Part shown: piece by piece, positions 8,929-57,989 of the stretch
Numbering within the stretch: the stretch's first letter is position 1
How the letters are laid out: the number at the start of each line of letters is the position of its first letter
From: a virus
Taxonomy: Duplodnaviria > Caudoviricetes
IMG/VR virus record: IMGVR_UViG_3300035512_000144
Location: 9,940-73,939 of that record
DNA: 64,000 nucleotides
Strand: one strand, 5' to 3'
Program-made: the position numbers and the translations under genes
Notes under the pieces: model-generated
Told to the model about the DNA's origin: nothing
Seen by the model: only the letters and a program-made list of their open reading frames with translations
The model's database searches: none

Positions 8929-9177
8929 TGACTTTCTCCCTCCTTTTCAATCTCACTCCTAAACCGCGCATCTAACATAGAAAACAATAATGCGTGCGCT
9001 GTTTGGAACATCACATGATTCAGTTCCTTGTCCTGAATGGCGAACATCATGGTAGCCGCCTGTAAAAATAACGCGCTGTCACCCTTGTTGCGGTTCTGCT
9101 TTCTGTCCATCATATAAAGGTCATATATCGGACTGTCTTTGATTCTCTGTGCAAAATCTTCCATGTTTGTGTTCATT
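8925..9177 (-). CDS. Hypothetical protein
   Basis: ORF with RBS AAGGAG. Confidence 0.55.
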
Positions 9178-9224
9178 GACTTTTCTCCTTTCAACTTGGA
9201 CGGTCATTCGCCCCATAAAATCAT

Positions 9225-10322
9225 TTATTCAGTTTTCAACAGGTTTACAGCTCGTTTGATTTCCTCTTCCGTAATGAGTGCTGACTGGAAGCGTATAAGT
9301 TTCTGACCATCGTTTGACTTAAAAAGCCCATCTCCGTTTCCTCTAAGTGTTTCAGCCCCATTTGAGCCAAGAATCATCCGACTGTTAAGCTTATCTACCG
9401 TTGCAAATCCGGCGCGGCATTGGAAGTTGCTTTTCAGCATTCCAGATATCACTTCCGCTTCAGGTCTTTGCGTTGATAAGATAACGTGGATTCCGCTTGC
9501 CCTTGCCTTTGCCGTAAGTCTTGATACATCATCCACAACCTTGTCTCCCTCCGATAAAATAAGGTCTGCCATTTCCTCAATATAGACCACGATCCGCGGT
9601 AGCTTGCCTTTTACGCTTGCGTTATATGAAGCAATATCTCGGCACTTATTCTTTGCAAATAATTCATATCGCAAGTCCATTTCCTCACACAGAATTTCAA
9701 GCTTTTTCCGCGCCGTCTTACTTTCCGTGATAATACTGGAAACTTGCGGAACACCCTTATAAAATCCAAATTCAACCGTTTTCGGGTCTATCAGAATCAG
9801 CTTCAAATCTTCCTTTGAGTATTGAAGTAAAAGCGATAACACGATATTGTGTGCAAATACCGACTTTCCGCTACCAGTTTGACCACCGATAAGAAAATGT
9901 GGCATAGTCGCAAGGTCATATGTTATTCCGCTACCGTCTAATGCTTCTCCGATTGATATAAACAATCCTTCCTTGTAGTTTTCAATCTTATTTAATTCCT
10001 CAATACAATCTGCAAATCCGTATGTTCCGCGTTCATTGTTTGGGACTTCAATGCACACATACTTTCCGTCCTGCGCAATCCTGCAACCATTCGTATTAAA
10101 TATGGAATTAAACTCACGAACCTTTCCGAGAAGAAATTTGATATAGTGCGGTTTAACTTCCACGTCATATCTTGTTGCAGCCGTTCCGCAATAGATTCCT
10201 TTTACATCCGCGTCAATGAACAACTGACTTTGGAATATCCGTTCCAAATCTTCCTTGTTCATGACCGTTTCTTCATGCTTAACCGAATGATTAAAGCAAT
10301 CTAAAAATTTACTGTCTATCAT
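9225..10322 (-). CDS. FtsK/SpoIIIE-like ATPase (alpha/beta motor only; no TM anchor, no gamma domain)
   Basis: MPHFLIGGQTGSGKS, LILIDPK, RIVVYIEEMADL, ARASGIHVILSTQRP, GAETLRGNGDGL. Confidence 0.85.
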   Translation of the reverse strand: MIDSKFLDCFNHSVKHEETVMNKEDLERIFQSQLFIDADVKGIYCGTAATRYDVEVKPHYIKFLLGKVREFNSIFNTNGCRIAQDGKYVCIEVPNNERGTYGFADCIEELNKIENYKEGLFISIGEALDGSGITYDLATMPHFLIGGQTGSGKSVFAHNIVLSLLLQYSKEDLKLILIDPKTVEFGFYKGVPQVSSIITESKTARKKLEILCEEMDLRYELFAKNKCRDIASYNASVKGKLPRIVVYIEEMADLILSEGDKVVDDVSRLTAKARASGIHVILSTQRPEAEVISGMLKSNFQCRAGFATVDKLNSRMILGSNGAETLRGNGDGLFKSNDGQKLIRFQSALITEEEIKRAVNLLKTE

Positions 10323-10662
10323 TCTGATTTTCTCCTATCTGATATTTATTCATATCTAAATATGCTTCACGAGCATTTCTGTATAAGTCACCACGTTCCT
10401 GCTTAATGAATTGCAGAATCAACATATCCGATTCCCATACAGAATTATTGGGATTTTTGTTGTCACAATACTCCATCAACTTTTCATCCAATTTTGTTAT
10501 GTCTATTCTGACCGAACCGCTTATTCTGTATAAAGCCCCTGCATCATTTGCCAGTTCTGATATAACCTTTTTGGACAACTTATATCTGATTTCGCAATCA
10601 TCAAGTGTCGCAAATTTTACTATGCTATTGTCTTTTGGCTTAAATCTTCGTTTTGCTTTCAT
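10309..10662 (-). CDS. Small DNA-binding (excisionase/HTH-like) protein
   Basis: RYKLSKKVISELANDAGALYRISGSVRID resembles Xis-like wHTH; start moved to MKAKRR (RBS AAGGA) because the longer ORF runs through the repeat array. Confidence 0.55.
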   Translation of the reverse strand: MKAKRRFKPKDNSIVKFATLDDCEIRYKLSKKVISELANDAGALYRISGSVRIDITKLDEKLMEYCDNKNPNNSVWESDMLILQFIKQERGDLYRNAREAYLDMNKYQIGENQNDRQ

Positions 10663-10700
10663 GTCAAACATCCTTAATATTGGTGTGCTTGTGTCGGCGC

Positions 10701-10995
10701 TTTCGATTACCTTGATAATCCGTATGGGTATCGTACAATGGTGGAATGAAGATTGCAGACATTGTCGCTCGATATCCTTTATAAATCTTAATGGTCTCAT
10801 ACACACAGAAAAACCACTATGCACCTACTTCGATACCCTTATCATTTCGTATAGGTGTCTACCTCTGTATGGTATCTGGCACAATGCAAATACCGTTCGA
10901 TACCCTTGTGAAATCGTATGGGTCTCATCCACTTTTGTTTTGAACAATACAATATTCTAGTTCGATACCCTTGTGAAATCGTATGGGTCTCATCC
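10701..10995 (-). CRISPR. Degenerate CRISPR-like mini-array 1: five 36-bp repeats, four spacers
   Basis: Repeats at 10701, 10767, 10828, 10895, 10960. The last two are identical (GTTCGATACCCTTGTGAAATCGTATGGGTCTCATCC, + strand); the others are 26-27/36 identical. Spacers are 30, 25, 31 and 29 bp. Confidence 0.85.
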
Positions 10996-11135
10996 CTCAA
11001 GAAACATCTGTTCTGTTTTTATACCCTTACTTAACAAGGTATATGCGTAGACGGTTTCTATCAGCCATATAGACTAATCACTAGACGTTTTCCGCATAAG
11101 TTTTGAGTTTTACCTCTTAGGACAATCGTTTGCCC
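10996..11135 (-). ncRNA. Putative tracr/omega-like scaffold RNA, copy 1
   Basis: Non-coding, between effector stop and first repeat; blockwise homologous to 12736-12872; 5' hairpin GGGCAA-ACGA-TTGTCC; contains ATACCTTGT complementary to repeat ACAAGGGTAT. Confidence 0.65.
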
Positions 11136-11145
11136 TTCTTCAATT

Positions 11146-12525
11146 TTATTTCAGCGCAAGATACATCTCTCTTGCGTATCTCTGCCTATAATCATTTTCC
11201 GACCTGTCGATATCTTTTATTTTCAGCTTTACCACAGTACCGCTATCAGCAGATGCTAACTTTGTTTCTATCAGCGTTACCAACATAGCAGGAGCATTAT
11301 GACCGACTGAATATCCTGCTTTGCTTTTCTTTTCATTTTCATTCTCAGTCTCTTTCTTCCGCATTGCCGCCGCTTGAAAGGGATAATCGTTGACCATAAT
11401 CATATTTCCATGAGACAAAATCTCATTTGCGATCGCGATTCTTTCCAGTTTTCGATTTTCGGCTTGTACCCGGTGCAAATCTCGCAACTCTGCAACCGCC
11501 TTGTGATATCCGTTTGAAAAATTCCATTTCAGCCGATAACGATTACCGTCAAAATAAATGCCTTTCTTACAAGTGCCATCCTCGTTGAAATTTTCGGGAT
11601 TCATAGCGCGTCTTGAATTGTCAAGGTACTGTTGTAAGGCTTTTATTTTCGTGTCATAGTAAATGTCTGTATCTGTATCTTCAAGGCTTATATCCGTAAA
11701 GGTTTCACCGTCTGACGTGTAGACCACATGAGACGTATCAATATACATTCCAACCTTGCCTTTATTGATAGGATTCTTTTCGTTGCCGTCCTTGTCATAC
11801 TTGGTGACAGGTGCTTTATCAATCGTTATCTGAACGTACCATTTCAATGTTCCACGGACTTCTTTATTGATAATGCGCACCTGTTTATATGATTCCAAAT
11901 CAAGCATTTCCAGTTTGTAATAGTCTTTCGGGTCTAACTTCAACGGCATTTTGATTGTCTTGCCATGTGCCGTACTGTAAACGCAATACAGTTTCCTGCC
12001 GTTTGCGTTCCCTCTGACCTTTTCCCAATCATCATCAACAATGCGTATTCCGCTTTTACCCTGTGAAACCATGGAATACCATTCGCCTTTACGCTTAAAC
12101 TTTATCTGTCTGCCACTTCCGAAAAAGTAATCATCAAATGCCGCCCACATAGCAGGTGCAATCGTGTTTCCTGCGACCTCACTCGGAATATTCATATTGA
12201 AATGTTTATAGAAACTCGTTGTGTCTCCGACAAATCCCATCTTGGAAAATCTGTACTCTTTCATAAGGTCATTCTTCGTCTGACACGCCGCCTTGAAATC
12301 AGCGTCTTTCTTTCTCTCCGCAGGCTCCATGTTTTTGTACGCATTAGCGATAACTTCCTTCGCTTGCTTGTATTCGGGTCTACGTTCCATTTCCCTAAGT
12401 TTCTTCAACTCATATCCCAACATGGAATTGTAAATTTGTCGGCAAATCTCAAACCGCTTTACAAGTGCGTCTGACTGCCATTTCTCTGTTTTTAGTGGGA
12501 TTGTGACTACACTCATTGCTCCCAT
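11146..12525 (-). CDS. TnpB/Cas12f-like RNA-guided protein, probably nuclease-dead
   Basis: TnpB-like N-terminus (RQIYNSML), WED strand KWYVQITID, RuvC-I position VGMYIDT, bridge helix LDNSRRAMNP, RuvC-II position MVNDY, APAMLVTLIETKL; C-terminal Zn finger/RuvC-III absent. Confidence 0.8.
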   Translation of the reverse strand: MGAMSVVTIPLKTEKWQSDALVKRFEICRQIYNSMLGYELKKLREMERRPEYKQAKEVIANAYKNMEPAERKKDADFKAACQTKNDLMKEYRFSKMGFVGDTTSFYKHFNMNIPSEVAGNTIAPAMWAAFDDYFFGSGRQIKFKRKGEWYSMVSQGKSGIRIVDDDWEKVRGNANGRKLYCVYSTAHGKTIKMPLKLDPKDYYKLEMLDLESYKQVRIINKEVRGTLKWYVQITIDKAPVTKYDKDGNEKNPINKGKVGMYIDTSHVVYTSDGETFTDISLEDTDTDIYYDTKIKALQQYLDNSRRAMNPENFNEDGTCKKGIYFDGNRYRLKWNFSNGYHKAVAELRDLHRVQAENRKLERIAIANEILSHGNMIMVNDYPFQAAAMRKKETENENEKKSKAGYSVGHNAPAMLVTLIETKLASADSGTVVKLKIKDIDRSENDYRQRYAREMYLALK

Positions 12526-12567
12526 TGTTTTCTCCTTCTTTCATTTACTATCCGAGACGTGGATGTG

Positions 12568-12735
12568 GCTCGATATCCTTACAAAATAAGATACCTCTCG
12601 TACTCCGTCTACAAGCTTATAACATAACTGATAGTTCGATACCCTTGTCAAAAGATATCTTTCTCGTACAATGGTATGCCATAAATCCGAGTGATACCGG
12701 TTCGATACACTTGTGAAAATCTATACCTCTCGCAC
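12568..12735 (-). CRISPR. Degenerate CRISPR-like mini-array 2: three 36-bp repeats, two 30-bp spacers
   Basis: Repeats at 12568, 12634, 12700 (exact 66-bp period), 23-27/36 identical to the array-1 consensus, sharing the GTTCGATACCCTT end. Confidence 0.8.
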
Positions 12736-12872
12736 CTCAAAGCACGTCTGTTCGATTTCGAGATATCCAGTTTACAAGGTGCTAGGTAGACGGCTTCTTC
12801 CATGCGTATAGCATAGACACTGACCGTTTTCCCATTGCGTTTTGCATTTCTGCTTCGGTCAATCGTTTGACC
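12736..12872 (-). ncRNA. Putative tracr/omega-like scaffold RNA, copy 2
   Basis: Homologous to 10996-11135; 5' hairpin GGTCAA-ACGA-TTGACC; directly abuts the first repeat. Confidence 0.65.
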
Positions 12873-12880
12873 GCTATAAT

Positions 12881-13204
12881 CTATTTATCCTTAATCCTCT
12901 CCAACTGCCTGCGAACCTTGTAATCTTTCGCCTGCTCGACCATGTCCTCACAGTTCAAAAGTACTTTCATTTGCGCAAGCATGACCTCTACGTCTGCGAT
13001 TTCTTCAACCATGTTGTTGAAACAAGCACTCTTTTCAAACTCGTTGGTTTTCCGAATGCCGTAAAATTCAACGACTCCGCAACCTAATTCCTTTCTCCAA
13101 AACTTGTTGACAGCCTGCGTCAGCTCCGCCATTTCTTCAATGAGCTGTCTGCTCTGCGCGTCATAGCCGTAATGCCTTGCAATATGCTCAATTGCCTTAC
13201 TCAT
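12881..13204 (-). CDS. MazG-like nucleotide pyrophosphohydrolase
   Basis: LIEEMAELTQAV ... MVEEIADVEVML. Confidence 0.8.
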   Translation of the reverse strand: MSKAIEHIARHYGYDAQSRQLIEEMAELTQAVNKFWRKELGCGVVEFYGIRKTNEFEKSACFNNMVEEIADVEVMLAQMKVLLNCEDMVEQAKDYKVRRQLERIKDK

Positions 13205-20814: not shown

Positions 20815-21171
20815 TTATGCGTTCATTTCCAGTTCCATAATCCGAAGGTCAAGTTCTGTGATTGTCTGCTCTGCCTCCATGATAGCGATATCCTGTGCTG
20901 TGATTTCCTGCTCCGTGGCTACAATGCCCGGCGTGAATCTATCCTCATACCGGCTGTGATGGTCAATCACATACCAGTCATAGCATCTGCCGTCTGCGCC
21001 TTCCTCTGACCGATATTTTTCCAAAACGTCAAAGTTGTCCGTTATGTGACTGTCTGCATACTTCCTTGTGATTGACACGCCTCCTGTTAGGTTTGAATGT
21101 TCCTCCCCAACGGTTTTCAAGTTTTCCATCCTCACGCCATTACGCCGCACTGTCCCGAAGATGTAATCCAT
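20815..21171 (-). CDS. Hypothetical protein with C-terminal coiled coil (XkdW-like position)
   Basis: QEITAQDIAIMEAEQTITELDLRIMELE precedes XkdX. Confidence 0.6.
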   Translation of the reverse strand: MDYIFGTVRRNGVRMENLKTVGEEHSNLTGGVSITRKYADSHITDNFDVLEKYRSEEGADGRCYDWYVIDHHSRYEDRFTPGIVATEQEITAQDIAIMEAEQTITELDLRIMELEMNA

Positions 21172-22232
21172 TTTTTAATCGCCTCCTTGTAATAGTCGCG
21201 CACGATCTTCTTTAGCTGCCTTTGCGTATGTTTCTTCACAAAGTTTGCATAAAGATGTACGCTGTTGCAATGTTTCAACGCACCAAGCCTTGATAACAGA
21301 CCTTGTGCGAATTTCACTGGTACGAGTCTGCCACATTCTCTCATGCGGTAGTACCGTTTCAGATGTTGTTTCAACCGCAGAAGTGTTTTCTTTCTCAGGA
21401 GTGTATACCCTTTGCCAAATCTATATCCGAGCGCATTCGGCATTCTCTTTGATGTCCTGAATTTCTGCCAGTTCCCTTTCAACTCCAGTTCATGTTCTCC
21501 GAGCCATGCGCTAACAAGGGCAATGATTTTGCCTGCTGTTCTCTTGCGGTTTGTGAAAACAGTAAAGTTGTCCATATACCTTATATAATGTGTCGCGCCG
21601 TTTTCTCTGATAAGCTGGTCAAGCGGCTGCAAGACTGTGTTTGCAAACCACTGTGAGCAATATGCGCCTATCATAATCCCGTCCTTGATGATACGTTCAA
21701 TCAAATCCAAGGTTCTGAAATCCTTGATAAGCTGTTTCATGCGTTTCATAACTATTTCCGGTTTCAGACTATCGTAGAAATGGCGTATGTCCATCTCAAT
21801 GCAATATTTCATGCCTTTTCCGCGTTTCATCCACTTCTTGATGCCATTAGCGCCGTAAATCGTGCCGCGTTTCTTGATGCTCCCGCAACACCACTTGTCC
21901 ATGCCTCGCATAAATATTGGTTCTAACACTTGTATCAGTGCATGATGAACACATTGGTCGGGAAACATTTTAGGTTCGCATATCTCCCGCCACTTTTCAG
22001 CGTTCATGTCATACCTTTTCTTTTTGATGACAGGGGACGGCTCAAATCCATTCACCAACAATTCGTATAATTCATGTACTCTTTCGTCCATGGTATTTTC
22101 CAACCATATGACGGTCTTATTCGGTTTGTCGGGAAAATGAACCCATCTGTGCGAATTGCATACCGTCTGTATCGCTTTCCTTAGATTTTCTTCTGAAATT
22201 ATCTTTGTAAATAAATGATTAGCACGTTTCAT
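21132..22232 (-). CDS. DGR reverse transcriptase
   Basis: K.REI..P, DQCVHHA, MDIRHFYDS, GIMIGAYCSQWFAN, YIRYMDNF, LGY; adjacent TR/VR pair. Confidence 0.92.
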   Translation of the reverse strand: MKRANHLFTKIISEENLRKAIQTVCNSHRWVHFPDKPNKTVIWLENTMDERVHELYELLVNGFEPSPVIKKKRYDMNAEKWREICEPKMFPDQCVHHALIQVLEPIFMRGMDKWCCGSIKKRGTIYGANGIKKWMKRGKGMKYCIEMDIRHFYDSLKPEIVMKRMKQLIKDFRTLDLIERIIKDGIMIGAYCSQWFANTVLQPLDQLIRENGATHYIRYMDNFTVFTNRKRTAGKIIALVSAWLGEHELELKGNWQKFRTSKRMPNALGYRFGKGYTLLRKKTLLRLKQHLKRYYRMRECGRLVPVKFAQGLLSRLGALKHCNSVHLYANFVKKHTQRQLKKIVRDYYKEAIKKWITSSGQCGVMA

Positions 22233-22414
22233 TGATATGCCATCTCCTTTTGACCTAACGACCTTTCCCACGCCATTTCTGGGGTACTAAGCCGTTCCAT
22301 ATCGGCACTATCTTCACCGTGTGGTGTGCGGTTTCTGCACCTATATAAAAACGCTTCAGATGTAAGCGTAATTACTGAAATAATTGGATGTGCAATCCGA
22401 TTTTAAAAGGGGTT

Positions 22415-57904: not shown

Positions 57905-57970
57905 TAGCCGAAACGGTCATTCGTGACCGTCAGCCGAGGGATAGCCGCCCGGCTCTGATGATGGCAGGCT
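57905..57970 (+). ncRNA. Type II hammerhead ribozyme
   Basis: GCC-GAAAC-GGTCA ttcg TGACC-GTC / AGCCG..CGGCT-CTGATGA-TGGC: all core motifs and three stems present. Confidence 0.8.
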
Positions 57971-57989
57971 GAAAATGGAGGTAAAAAGA

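Follow-up and report, generated by a model that had tools for sequence, protein, structure and literature searches.

Nuclease-dead TnpB and Cas12 proteins with guide scaffolds are already known (TldR and dCas12f), as are inactivated type V effectors with CRISPR arrays and the splitting of a transposon guide RNA, the omegaRNA or reRNA, in TranC. According to Wiegand et al. (bioRxiv 10.1101/2023.11.30.569447), TldRs have links to fliC or oppF and seem to rely mainly on a single guide RNA (gRNA). Hoffmann et al. (Nature 2026, PMC13472631, Extended Data Fig. 1) used covariation to locate putative gRNA scaffolds of an array-associated dCas12f cluster; these lie in intergenic sequence upstream of the arrays. 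The effector Cas12m (type V-M), which plasmids or prophages carry, blocks transcription through DNA binding without cleavage (PMC11656645). Alongside V-M, the inactivated type V effectors with arrays include V-C and the predicted V-O and V-P, and catalogues list about 50 independent transitions from TnpB to type V together with V-U variants (PMC10691335, PMC12669027); for V-U24, a non-canonical RuvC-I and a helix-turn-helix neighbour are described (PMC10691335). The splitting of the reRNA into a trans-activating CRISPR RNA (tracrRNA) and a CRISPR RNA (crRNA) has been shown for TranC, as cited in one preprint (bioRxiv 10.64898/2026.03.27.714800). Here we describe a related locus in a 64,000-nucleotide (nt) stretch of phage DNA (the window; positions 9,940 to 73,939 of the 73,939-bp IMG/VR virus record IMGVR_UViG_3300035512_000144, a 74-kb Caudoviricetes phage). 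In this locus, two paralogous blocks of about 140 nt lie on either side of a gene for a TnpB/Cas12-like protein, and each directly adjoins the first 36-nt repeat of its own mini-array.

We read the two blocks as guide-RNA scaffold genes derived from the omegaRNA of the effector's own TnpB lineage, with a set of guide steps that we propose below, and we give this reading a probability of about 0.75. Its structural core is solid, while the mechanism of guide use is a proposal. Read along the minus strand, the locus runs from block 2 (12872-12736) through three repeats, the open reading frame (ORF) of 459 amino acids (aa) and block 1 (11135-10996) to five further repeats. Its parts are as follows.

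12736-12875, minus strand: scaffold copy 2 (core 12774-12875, extension 12736-12773); 99 bits against covariance model R1; the minimum free energy (MFE) fold gives helices P1-P5, z -2.95.
12568-12735, minus strand: mini-array B, three 36-nt repeats (12700-12735, 12634-12669, 12568-12603) and two 30-nt spacers, directly upstream of the ribosome-binding site of the effector gene.
11146-12525, minus strand: ORF of the effector P0001, 459 aa, TnpB/Cas12-like and predicted to be nuclease-dead.
10996-11138, minus strand: scaffold copy 1 (core P1-P5 at 11034-11138); 104 bits against R1; the MFE fold recovers P1-P5, z -2.9.
10996-11033, minus strand: 3' extension of scaffold copy 1; it comprises the anti-repeat word ACCUUGU, a local hairpin whose 3' strand is repeat-like, and a conserved junction of about 15 nt.
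10701-10995, minus strand: mini-array A, five 36-nt repeats (10960-10995, 10895-10930, 10828-10863, 10767-10802, 10701-10736) and four spacers of 25-31 nt.

A first-pass annotation, made from the letters alone, had marked 10996-11135 and 12736-12872 (minus strand) as paralogous blocks. Their coordinates hold, and the two align end to end over their whole length (128 of 204 columns identical, including the first repeat and short flanks). In both arrays, the repeats adjoining the block are the best conserved and the distal ones decay; in array A, two identical repeats stand nearest block 1 and the degenerate ones lie at the distal end. The two-block architecture is repeated in relatives at 70-88% protein identity, and blocks sit 5' of arrays across the whole family. 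The recurrence of this arrangement is far beyond chance.

The blocks encode a structured RNA of five helices and are more than leader DNA. The structure was derived by hand on copy 1 from hairpins whose stems differ between the copies and whose loops are kept: P1 (GGGCAA/UUGUCC), P2 (GAG/CUC), P3 (UAUGCG/CGCAUA), P4 (ACG(G)/(C)CGU) and P5 (AUUAGUC/GGCUGAU). P1 and P2 are hairpins, P3 is a long-range helix that encloses P4 and P5, and the conserved single-stranded words AAAAC, GGAAA, AGUG, AGAA and (C/G)UAC lie between the helices. Alignment A6, made with MAFFT from sequence only, holds 13 window-like copies, which come from six contigs and the window. In it, 88.7% of cells pair, versus 27-43% when the partners are slid by 1-3 columns. 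Compensatory (both-side) changes occur at 21 of the 26 pairs, and the observed score was reached by none of 500 shuffles. We then used a covariance model, R1, built from the window-like copies; over 55 loci it finds 71 copies, 63 of them distinct. Among these 63 (in an alignment fitted to the model), 90.6% of cells pair, versus 34-42% when slid, and all 26 pairs show compensation. The first-pass annotation had proposed scaffold RNAs with compensatory changes from a single pair of the 5' hairpin (GGGCAA/UUGUCC in one copy and GGUCAA/UUGACC in the other, that is, G.U versus U-A); that difference is real, and the covariance model extends it to homologues in every helix. The helices are maintained by compensation in two paralogous scaffold lineages; copy 2 belongs to an 'upstream-type' lineage common to the loci L001, L187, L188 and L191 in A6 (L numbers are our handles for loci). 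Comparison with Rfam gave no match at gathering thresholds over the whole window and none at E <= 1 over 9100-13000.

The strand of the scaffold follows from the same pairs. G.U pairs, compatible with the minus strand only, are frequent (e.g. in P1), and we therefore take the minus strand as that of the scaffold. Single-sequence folding recovers the five helices in each window copy on the minus strand (z of about -2.9), and the fold of the plus strand of copy 1 is unremarkable (z -0.6). Two other structural attempts were set aside. RNAalifold, run on a mixed-subfamily MAFFT alignment, found P1 alone because the other helices are misaligned there, and it was replaced by the hand-derived structure. 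A pseudoknot between GGAAA and the pre-guide tail fits L071 and fails in other relatives.

The origin of this RNA is indicated by further matches to R1. R1 matches 16 of 21 loci outside the nuclease-dead clade of about 460 aa (mostly nuclease-intact TnpB relatives), with best-match E values of 1e-8 to 2e-3, and all five helices are kept. In the nuclease-intact relatives, the matches lie 28-47 nt past the stop codon on the same strand. One such relative is present in five copies in a single genome, with a sixth on a viral contig that differs by two single bases. The six copies are conserved over the aligned stretch to 32 nt beyond the 3' strand of P3 (P3') and are unrelated after that point; this abrupt end marks the transposon end, with the guide outside. 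The active element thus reads core, AAC, a hairpin P6, an 8-nt tail and a variable guide. Because R1 matches lie directly downstream of nuclease-intact, multi-copy TnpB relatives, we regard the scaffold as derived from the omegaRNA. The first-pass annotation had placed copy 1 where an omegaRNA would be, and both the distance of 11 nt between the effector's stop codon and block 1 and the R1 matches at the omegaRNA site of nuclease-intact relatives agree with it.

Where the active element has P6 and the tail, the loci of the dead clade have the 36-nt repeat. In L109, L113, L067 and L192, repeat 1 begins 2-3 nt after P3', and the repeats examined there hold a hairpin of their own. We suggest that a unit made of whatever stands for P6 (a hairpin or half a hairpin), the tail and a guide was multiplied into a CRISPR-like array, so that the repeat would be that unit. 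Neither transposon ends nor TnpA are present in the window locus. Elsewhere, a Y1 transposase gene (PF01797) lies at L192:117-497, about 600 nt upstream of a dead-clade locus with scaffold, array and effector.

The effector itself is a distant member of the TnpB/Cas12 fold. P0001 matches the NCBIfam profile guided_TnpB weakly and below its cut-off (1.4e-9) and phrog_506 at 5e-20; P0001 has no sequence match among solved chains, and the profile of its family finds nothing below E 0.1 among PDB sequences. An AlphaFold (AF2) model has a predicted local distance difference test (pLDDT) score of 84.8. Foldseek on this model gives fold-level matches to Cas12m2, Cas12f, the ISDra2 and ISFba1 TnpBs, dCas12f and LaTranC; the best is Cas12m 8hhl (E 9.5e-13), and the sequence identity of the fold alignments is 10-12%. 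One clade is formed by about 90 full-length homologues of some 460 aa (35-88% identity) from rumen and gut metagenomes, Butyrivibrio and viral contigs. More distant relatives of 490-550 aa retain the motifs GIDIG, V-E-E/D (VEE/VED) and RDLYSA. In the clade of about 460 aa, the RuvC-II Glu is an invariant Asn (N379, in VNDYPF; alignments A2/A3), and, compared with relatives of 500-548 aa, the protein stops before the region that bears RuvC-III and is without a zinc finger. The position of the RuvC-I Asp aligns to a Tyr; because a conserved Asp, D263, stands two residues later in the alignment, at the end of the same strand, the status of this residue is left ambiguous. From the missing catalytic residues and the truncation we predict that nuclease activity has been lost. 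The ORF is intact, and non-catalytic residues are invariant across the homologues.

A second element of the scaffold concerns its contact with the repeats. In the window subfamily and in L114, L121-124 and L194, a short word stands past P3', ACCUUGU or (C)CCUUG, whose complement, ACAAGG(G), lies in the repeat. After that complement come an 8-nt tail, UAUCGAAC, and the spacer, and the tail is as long as that of the active element. Judging by position and length, the duplex of anti-repeat and repeat would be a split P6. Duplex energies, taken over 24 nt around the model end against the cognate repeat, give z of -2 to -4.6 in subfamilies with the anti-repeat word and about 0 in those without it; in the window, copy 1 reaches -11.7 kcal/mol (z -2.4) and copy 2 reaches -7.0 (z -0.7). 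The complementarity is 6-11 nt long, and eight proposed pairs form in 93% of cells versus 32-60% when slid (A5), with one compensatory cell. The columns are nearly invariant, and covariation therefore cannot demonstrate this pairing. The idea that the two anti-repeats vary together with their own arrays did not hold up. A local pairing is also open to the anti-repeat in copy-1-type scaffolds, AUACCUU with AAGGGUAU in the window and ACACCUU with AGGGUGU in L187, a compensatory difference. This repeat-like extension word is followed by ...GAAC (the ending of the repeat itself) and then by the conserved stretch of about 15 nt before repeat 1 (10996-11012 and 12736-12752, minus strand). A TTTGAC/TTGAGG word occurs in this stretch in about 90% of all cassettes, and in some subfamilies the stretch is the 3' strand of P3.

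An anti-repeat also occurs outside the clade. A 640-aa relative whose RuvC motifs are altered (L132:4318-4640) comes with a scaffold of its own, an anti-repeat (ACCTTGTG) and an array of 36-nt repeats; it is a second, larger array-associated branch of the lineage. We had considered it as an active TnpB with a cis hairpin of anti-repeat and repeat words, and we withdrew that view given its own array and altered RuvC motifs.

The joint between scaffold and array is equally regular. The distance from the model end to the start of the first repeat is -5 to +44 nt in dead-clade loci (two larger values are mis-called first repeats), and this spacing holds for upstream, downstream and tandemly duplicated cassettes. 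Arrays start 105-150 nt past the stop codon in nearly all of these loci, and a scan found no terminator-like site between scaffold and repeat 1. Some cassettes have no array: in L108, in the upstream copies of both L109 and L112 and in the downstream one of L001, the scaffold is followed by a single repeat and a single unique segment. This continuum from single guide to mini-array supports a functional unit of scaffold, repeat 1 and spacer 1. Tandem duplications of the whole scaffold-plus-array cassette in L113, L114 and L120 (e.g. L113:4200-4420) include the effector's last codons, which suggests that cassettes multiply by local duplication. A separate arrangement is seen in two Butyrivibrio-type chromosomal loci (L028:4428-4523 and L115:3923-4023, both minus strand): a lone scaffold without an array lies just past the stop codon of the dead effector, on the opposite strand, and looks like a lone convergent guide RNA. 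For the window, the first-pass annotation had suggested a natural single-guide-like fusion of tracrRNA and repeat. The direct joint stands, and the relatives with scaffold, one repeat and one guide speak for a natural single guide. The ACCTTGT anti-repeat that it saw in both blocks is there and complementary to ACAAGG; as a pairing it amounts to conserved complementarity, with the single compensatory cell, a weak copy 2 and several subfamilies in which it is missing.

From these observations we propose how the system might work. Scaffold and array would be co-transcribed, copy 2 and array B as the 5' untranslated region (UTR) of the effector messenger RNA and copy 1 and array A as its 3' UTR. 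Scaffold, repeat 1 and spacer 1 would form a natural single guide. In the window subfamily, the 5' strand of P6 would have been retained on the scaffold as the anti-repeat ACCUUGU, which could pair with ACAAGG(G) of a repeat, followed by the tail and the spacer. Later repeat-spacer units may be set free and join scaffold molecules by pairing in trans. The effector, predicted to be catalytically dead, would use these guides to bind DNA without cutting it, repressing or excluding the target. RNA-guided DNA binding without cleavage is likely by analogy with TldR, dCas12f, Cas12m and Cas12c, and possible targets are the host, a rival phage and the regulation of the phage itself. Taken together, the locus might be a living intermediate in the split from omegaRNA to tracrRNA and crRNA, in which the first spacer acts in cis and later spacers act in trans through the retained half of the last helix, and in which the phage has a multiplexed repressor with a dead effector. 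We hold this fuller picture tentatively, at somewhat under even odds.

Searches for targets returned the following. Compared with the 73.9-kb phage itself, the window spacers have no significant second match of at least 13 nt; compared with GenBank phages, they have no protospacer. Among 401 Lachnospiraceae genomes, the best match (27 of 30) is not significant after multiple testing, and the three window spacers searched against IMG/VR share no exact 22-mers with it. Spacers of related loci match duplicate contigs only.

Several points weigh against the reading as omegaRNA-derived guide scaffolds with these guide steps. Since no protospacer was found, DNA binding and repression are argued by analogy only. 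The strand, ends and processing of the scaffold transcript are deduced from sequence, and our scans for promoters and terminators gave no more than chance levels. The anti-repeat complementarity is real and conserved, yet the pairing itself is without proof from covariation; for copy 2 it is weak, and several subfamilies lack it, which leaves the loading of spacers 2 to n unexplained there. Finally, the stretch of about 15 nt before repeat 1 has no assigned role in the window subfamily.

How far the contiguity of scaffold and array matters is the point on which one rival explanation turns. In a dual-RNA system, the scaffold would be a conventional tracrRNA, cut away or separately transcribed, that works in trans with processed crRNAs, and the contiguity would be meaningless. 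The anti-repeat is indeed complementary to every repeat of its array and not just to the first, and in related compact type V and TranC loci, the tracrRNA is encoded between effector and array, as described in bioRxiv 10.64898/2026.03.27.714800. However, no terminator or promoter signal parts the scaffold from repeat 1, the relatives with scaffold, a single repeat and a guide resemble fused guides, and several subfamilies have no anti-repeat at all. We consider this explanation unlikely.

Two further explanations would deny the blocks a role as RNA or any role at all. If the effector and cassettes were functionless remnants of a dead TnpB or type V element, degenerate distal repeats, a third scaffold copy reduced to a stump and spacers with no target found would be unsurprising. 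Against such decay stand the intact ORF, the roughly 90 full-length homologues at 35-88% identity with their invariant non-catalytic residues, the compensated helices of two paralogous scaffold lineages and a cassette position that is conserved among phages; we regard it as very improbable. The blocks might instead be CRISPR leaders, that is, promoter or integration signals at the DNA level that were duplicated with the arrays and are non-functional as RNA, an outcome that the first-pass annotation had named as fatal to its own proposal. The blocks do sit at the leader end of each array, beside the best-conserved repeats, and most copies have an AT-rich, TATA-like sequence just upstream of P1. 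Leaders are conserved, non-structured, AT-rich DNA with a promoter at the growing end of the array, and of this description, the position fits the blocks. What is conserved in them is base pairs, 26 of which are held by compensatory and G.U changes in 63 copies; R1 also matches the omegaRNA of TnpB elements that have no array, promoter-like sites are at chance level, and no cas1 or cas2 turned up among the genes examined in the loci. The leader explanation is, to us, scarcely tenable.

The surroundings of the locus contain two further features.

9153-9216, minus strand: degenerate third scaffold copy; 23 bits against R1, E 7e-4; alignment A9.
10309-10662, minus strand: DUF6462 gene, after array A; Pfam PF20063, 6e-10.

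The third copy lies just after the FtsK-like gene and retains P1, P2 and the start of P3; other sequence, with a small ORF in it, now stands in place of the remainder. Two relatives (L001:3819-3920 and L002:2587-2690) keep the third scaffold intact at the same position, together with an array. The DUF6462 gene beside the cassette is conserved among close relatives. All genes here are on the minus strand, with SSB and MazG-like genes on one flank and the DUF6462, FtsK-like and SbcC-like genes on the other. Of the promoter-like hexamer pairs, the best, with 10 of 12 matches, are at 10712-10739 and 12645-12672 on the plus strand, within degenerate distal repeats and antisense to the arrays. Farther along the window, 22244-22326 (minus strand) matches the Rfam RT-18 RNA with 75.8 bits and overlaps the 5' end of a 379-aa ORF (21132-22271, minus strand); it may be a reverse-transcriptase-associated RNA. 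A type II hammerhead ribozyme of Rfam is matched at 57906-57973 (plus strand; 51.6 bits).

In the literature that we searched, we did not find a description of this scaffold RNA family, of its homology to the omegaRNA of still-mobile relatives, of its contiguity with each array or of two to three cassettes per phage locus. This well-supported RNA family (63 distinct copies, no Rfam match) forms a direct bridge, inside one protein lineage, between a transposon nuclease's guide RNA and a CRISPR array. The lineage spans mobile, nuclease-intact elements with single guides and nuclease-dead forms with a single guide, with a scaffold plus one repeat or with multi-cassette mini-arrays. Such a range of forms makes the origin of repeats and tracrRNAs from an omegaRNA testable by comparing natural relatives. 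Analogy with known systems points to a compact (459 aa), phage-borne, RNA-guided DNA-binding system with built-in multiplexing.

How the window family relates to the described systems can be set out in turn. With the TnpB omegaRNA or reRNA (IS200/IS605-type), the scaffold shares its position just past the effector's stop codon, its strand and its core fold. An omegaRNA leads into a single guide at its 3' end, at the transposon boundary, whereas the window scaffold leads into a repeat-spacer array; moreover, a locus of the window family holds two to three copies, of which one lies upstream of the gene, and we saw no TnpA or mobility. With TldR, the effector shares a TnpB-like size, the loss of RuvC residues and a C-terminus cut short, so that zinc finger and RuvC-III are gone; both are borne by phages or prophages, with a scaffold of about 100 nt fused to the guide. 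It is, as a TldR is, a TnpB homologue with lost RuvC residues and a truncated C-terminus. Unlike TldR, the window family has CRISPR-like mini-arrays and several cassettes, and it shows no sequence match at E < 0.1 to solved TnpB or TldR-like chains. The dCas12f cluster likewise has nuclease-dead, C-terminally truncated effectors beside CRISPR arrays, but it is derived from Cas12f, with its mapped example in Chitinophagaceae, whereas the window family belongs to Clostridia/Butyrivibrio phages and to a TnpB branch without a zinc finger; the dCas12f structure 9n9c is a fold-level match only to P0001.

Cas12m differs in size, its solved chains having about 570-600 residues versus 459 aa here. It also uses a crRNA alone and is not known to have a long scaffold. 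As in type V systems, a TnpB/Cas12-fold effector stands consistently beside a CRISPR array, and the effector may already be among the unnamed V-U groups, for which the DUF6462 neighbour is suggestive only. The likeness to TranC, as cited in the preprint named above, and to compact type V systems (Cas12f, Cas12n) extends to a TnpB-sized effector, 36-nt repeats, about 3-5 repeats per array, the lack of adaptation genes, a scaffold between effector and array and a repeat in place of the reRNA's 3' module. With P0001, the LaTranC structure 9jfo shares a fold-level match only. Compared with these systems, the window effector is predicted to be nuclease-dead, its scaffold is unseparated from the array and each array has its own scaffold copy. 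Altogether, the system looks like a surviving intermediate between transposon guide RNAs and the tracrRNA and crRNA of CRISPR systems.

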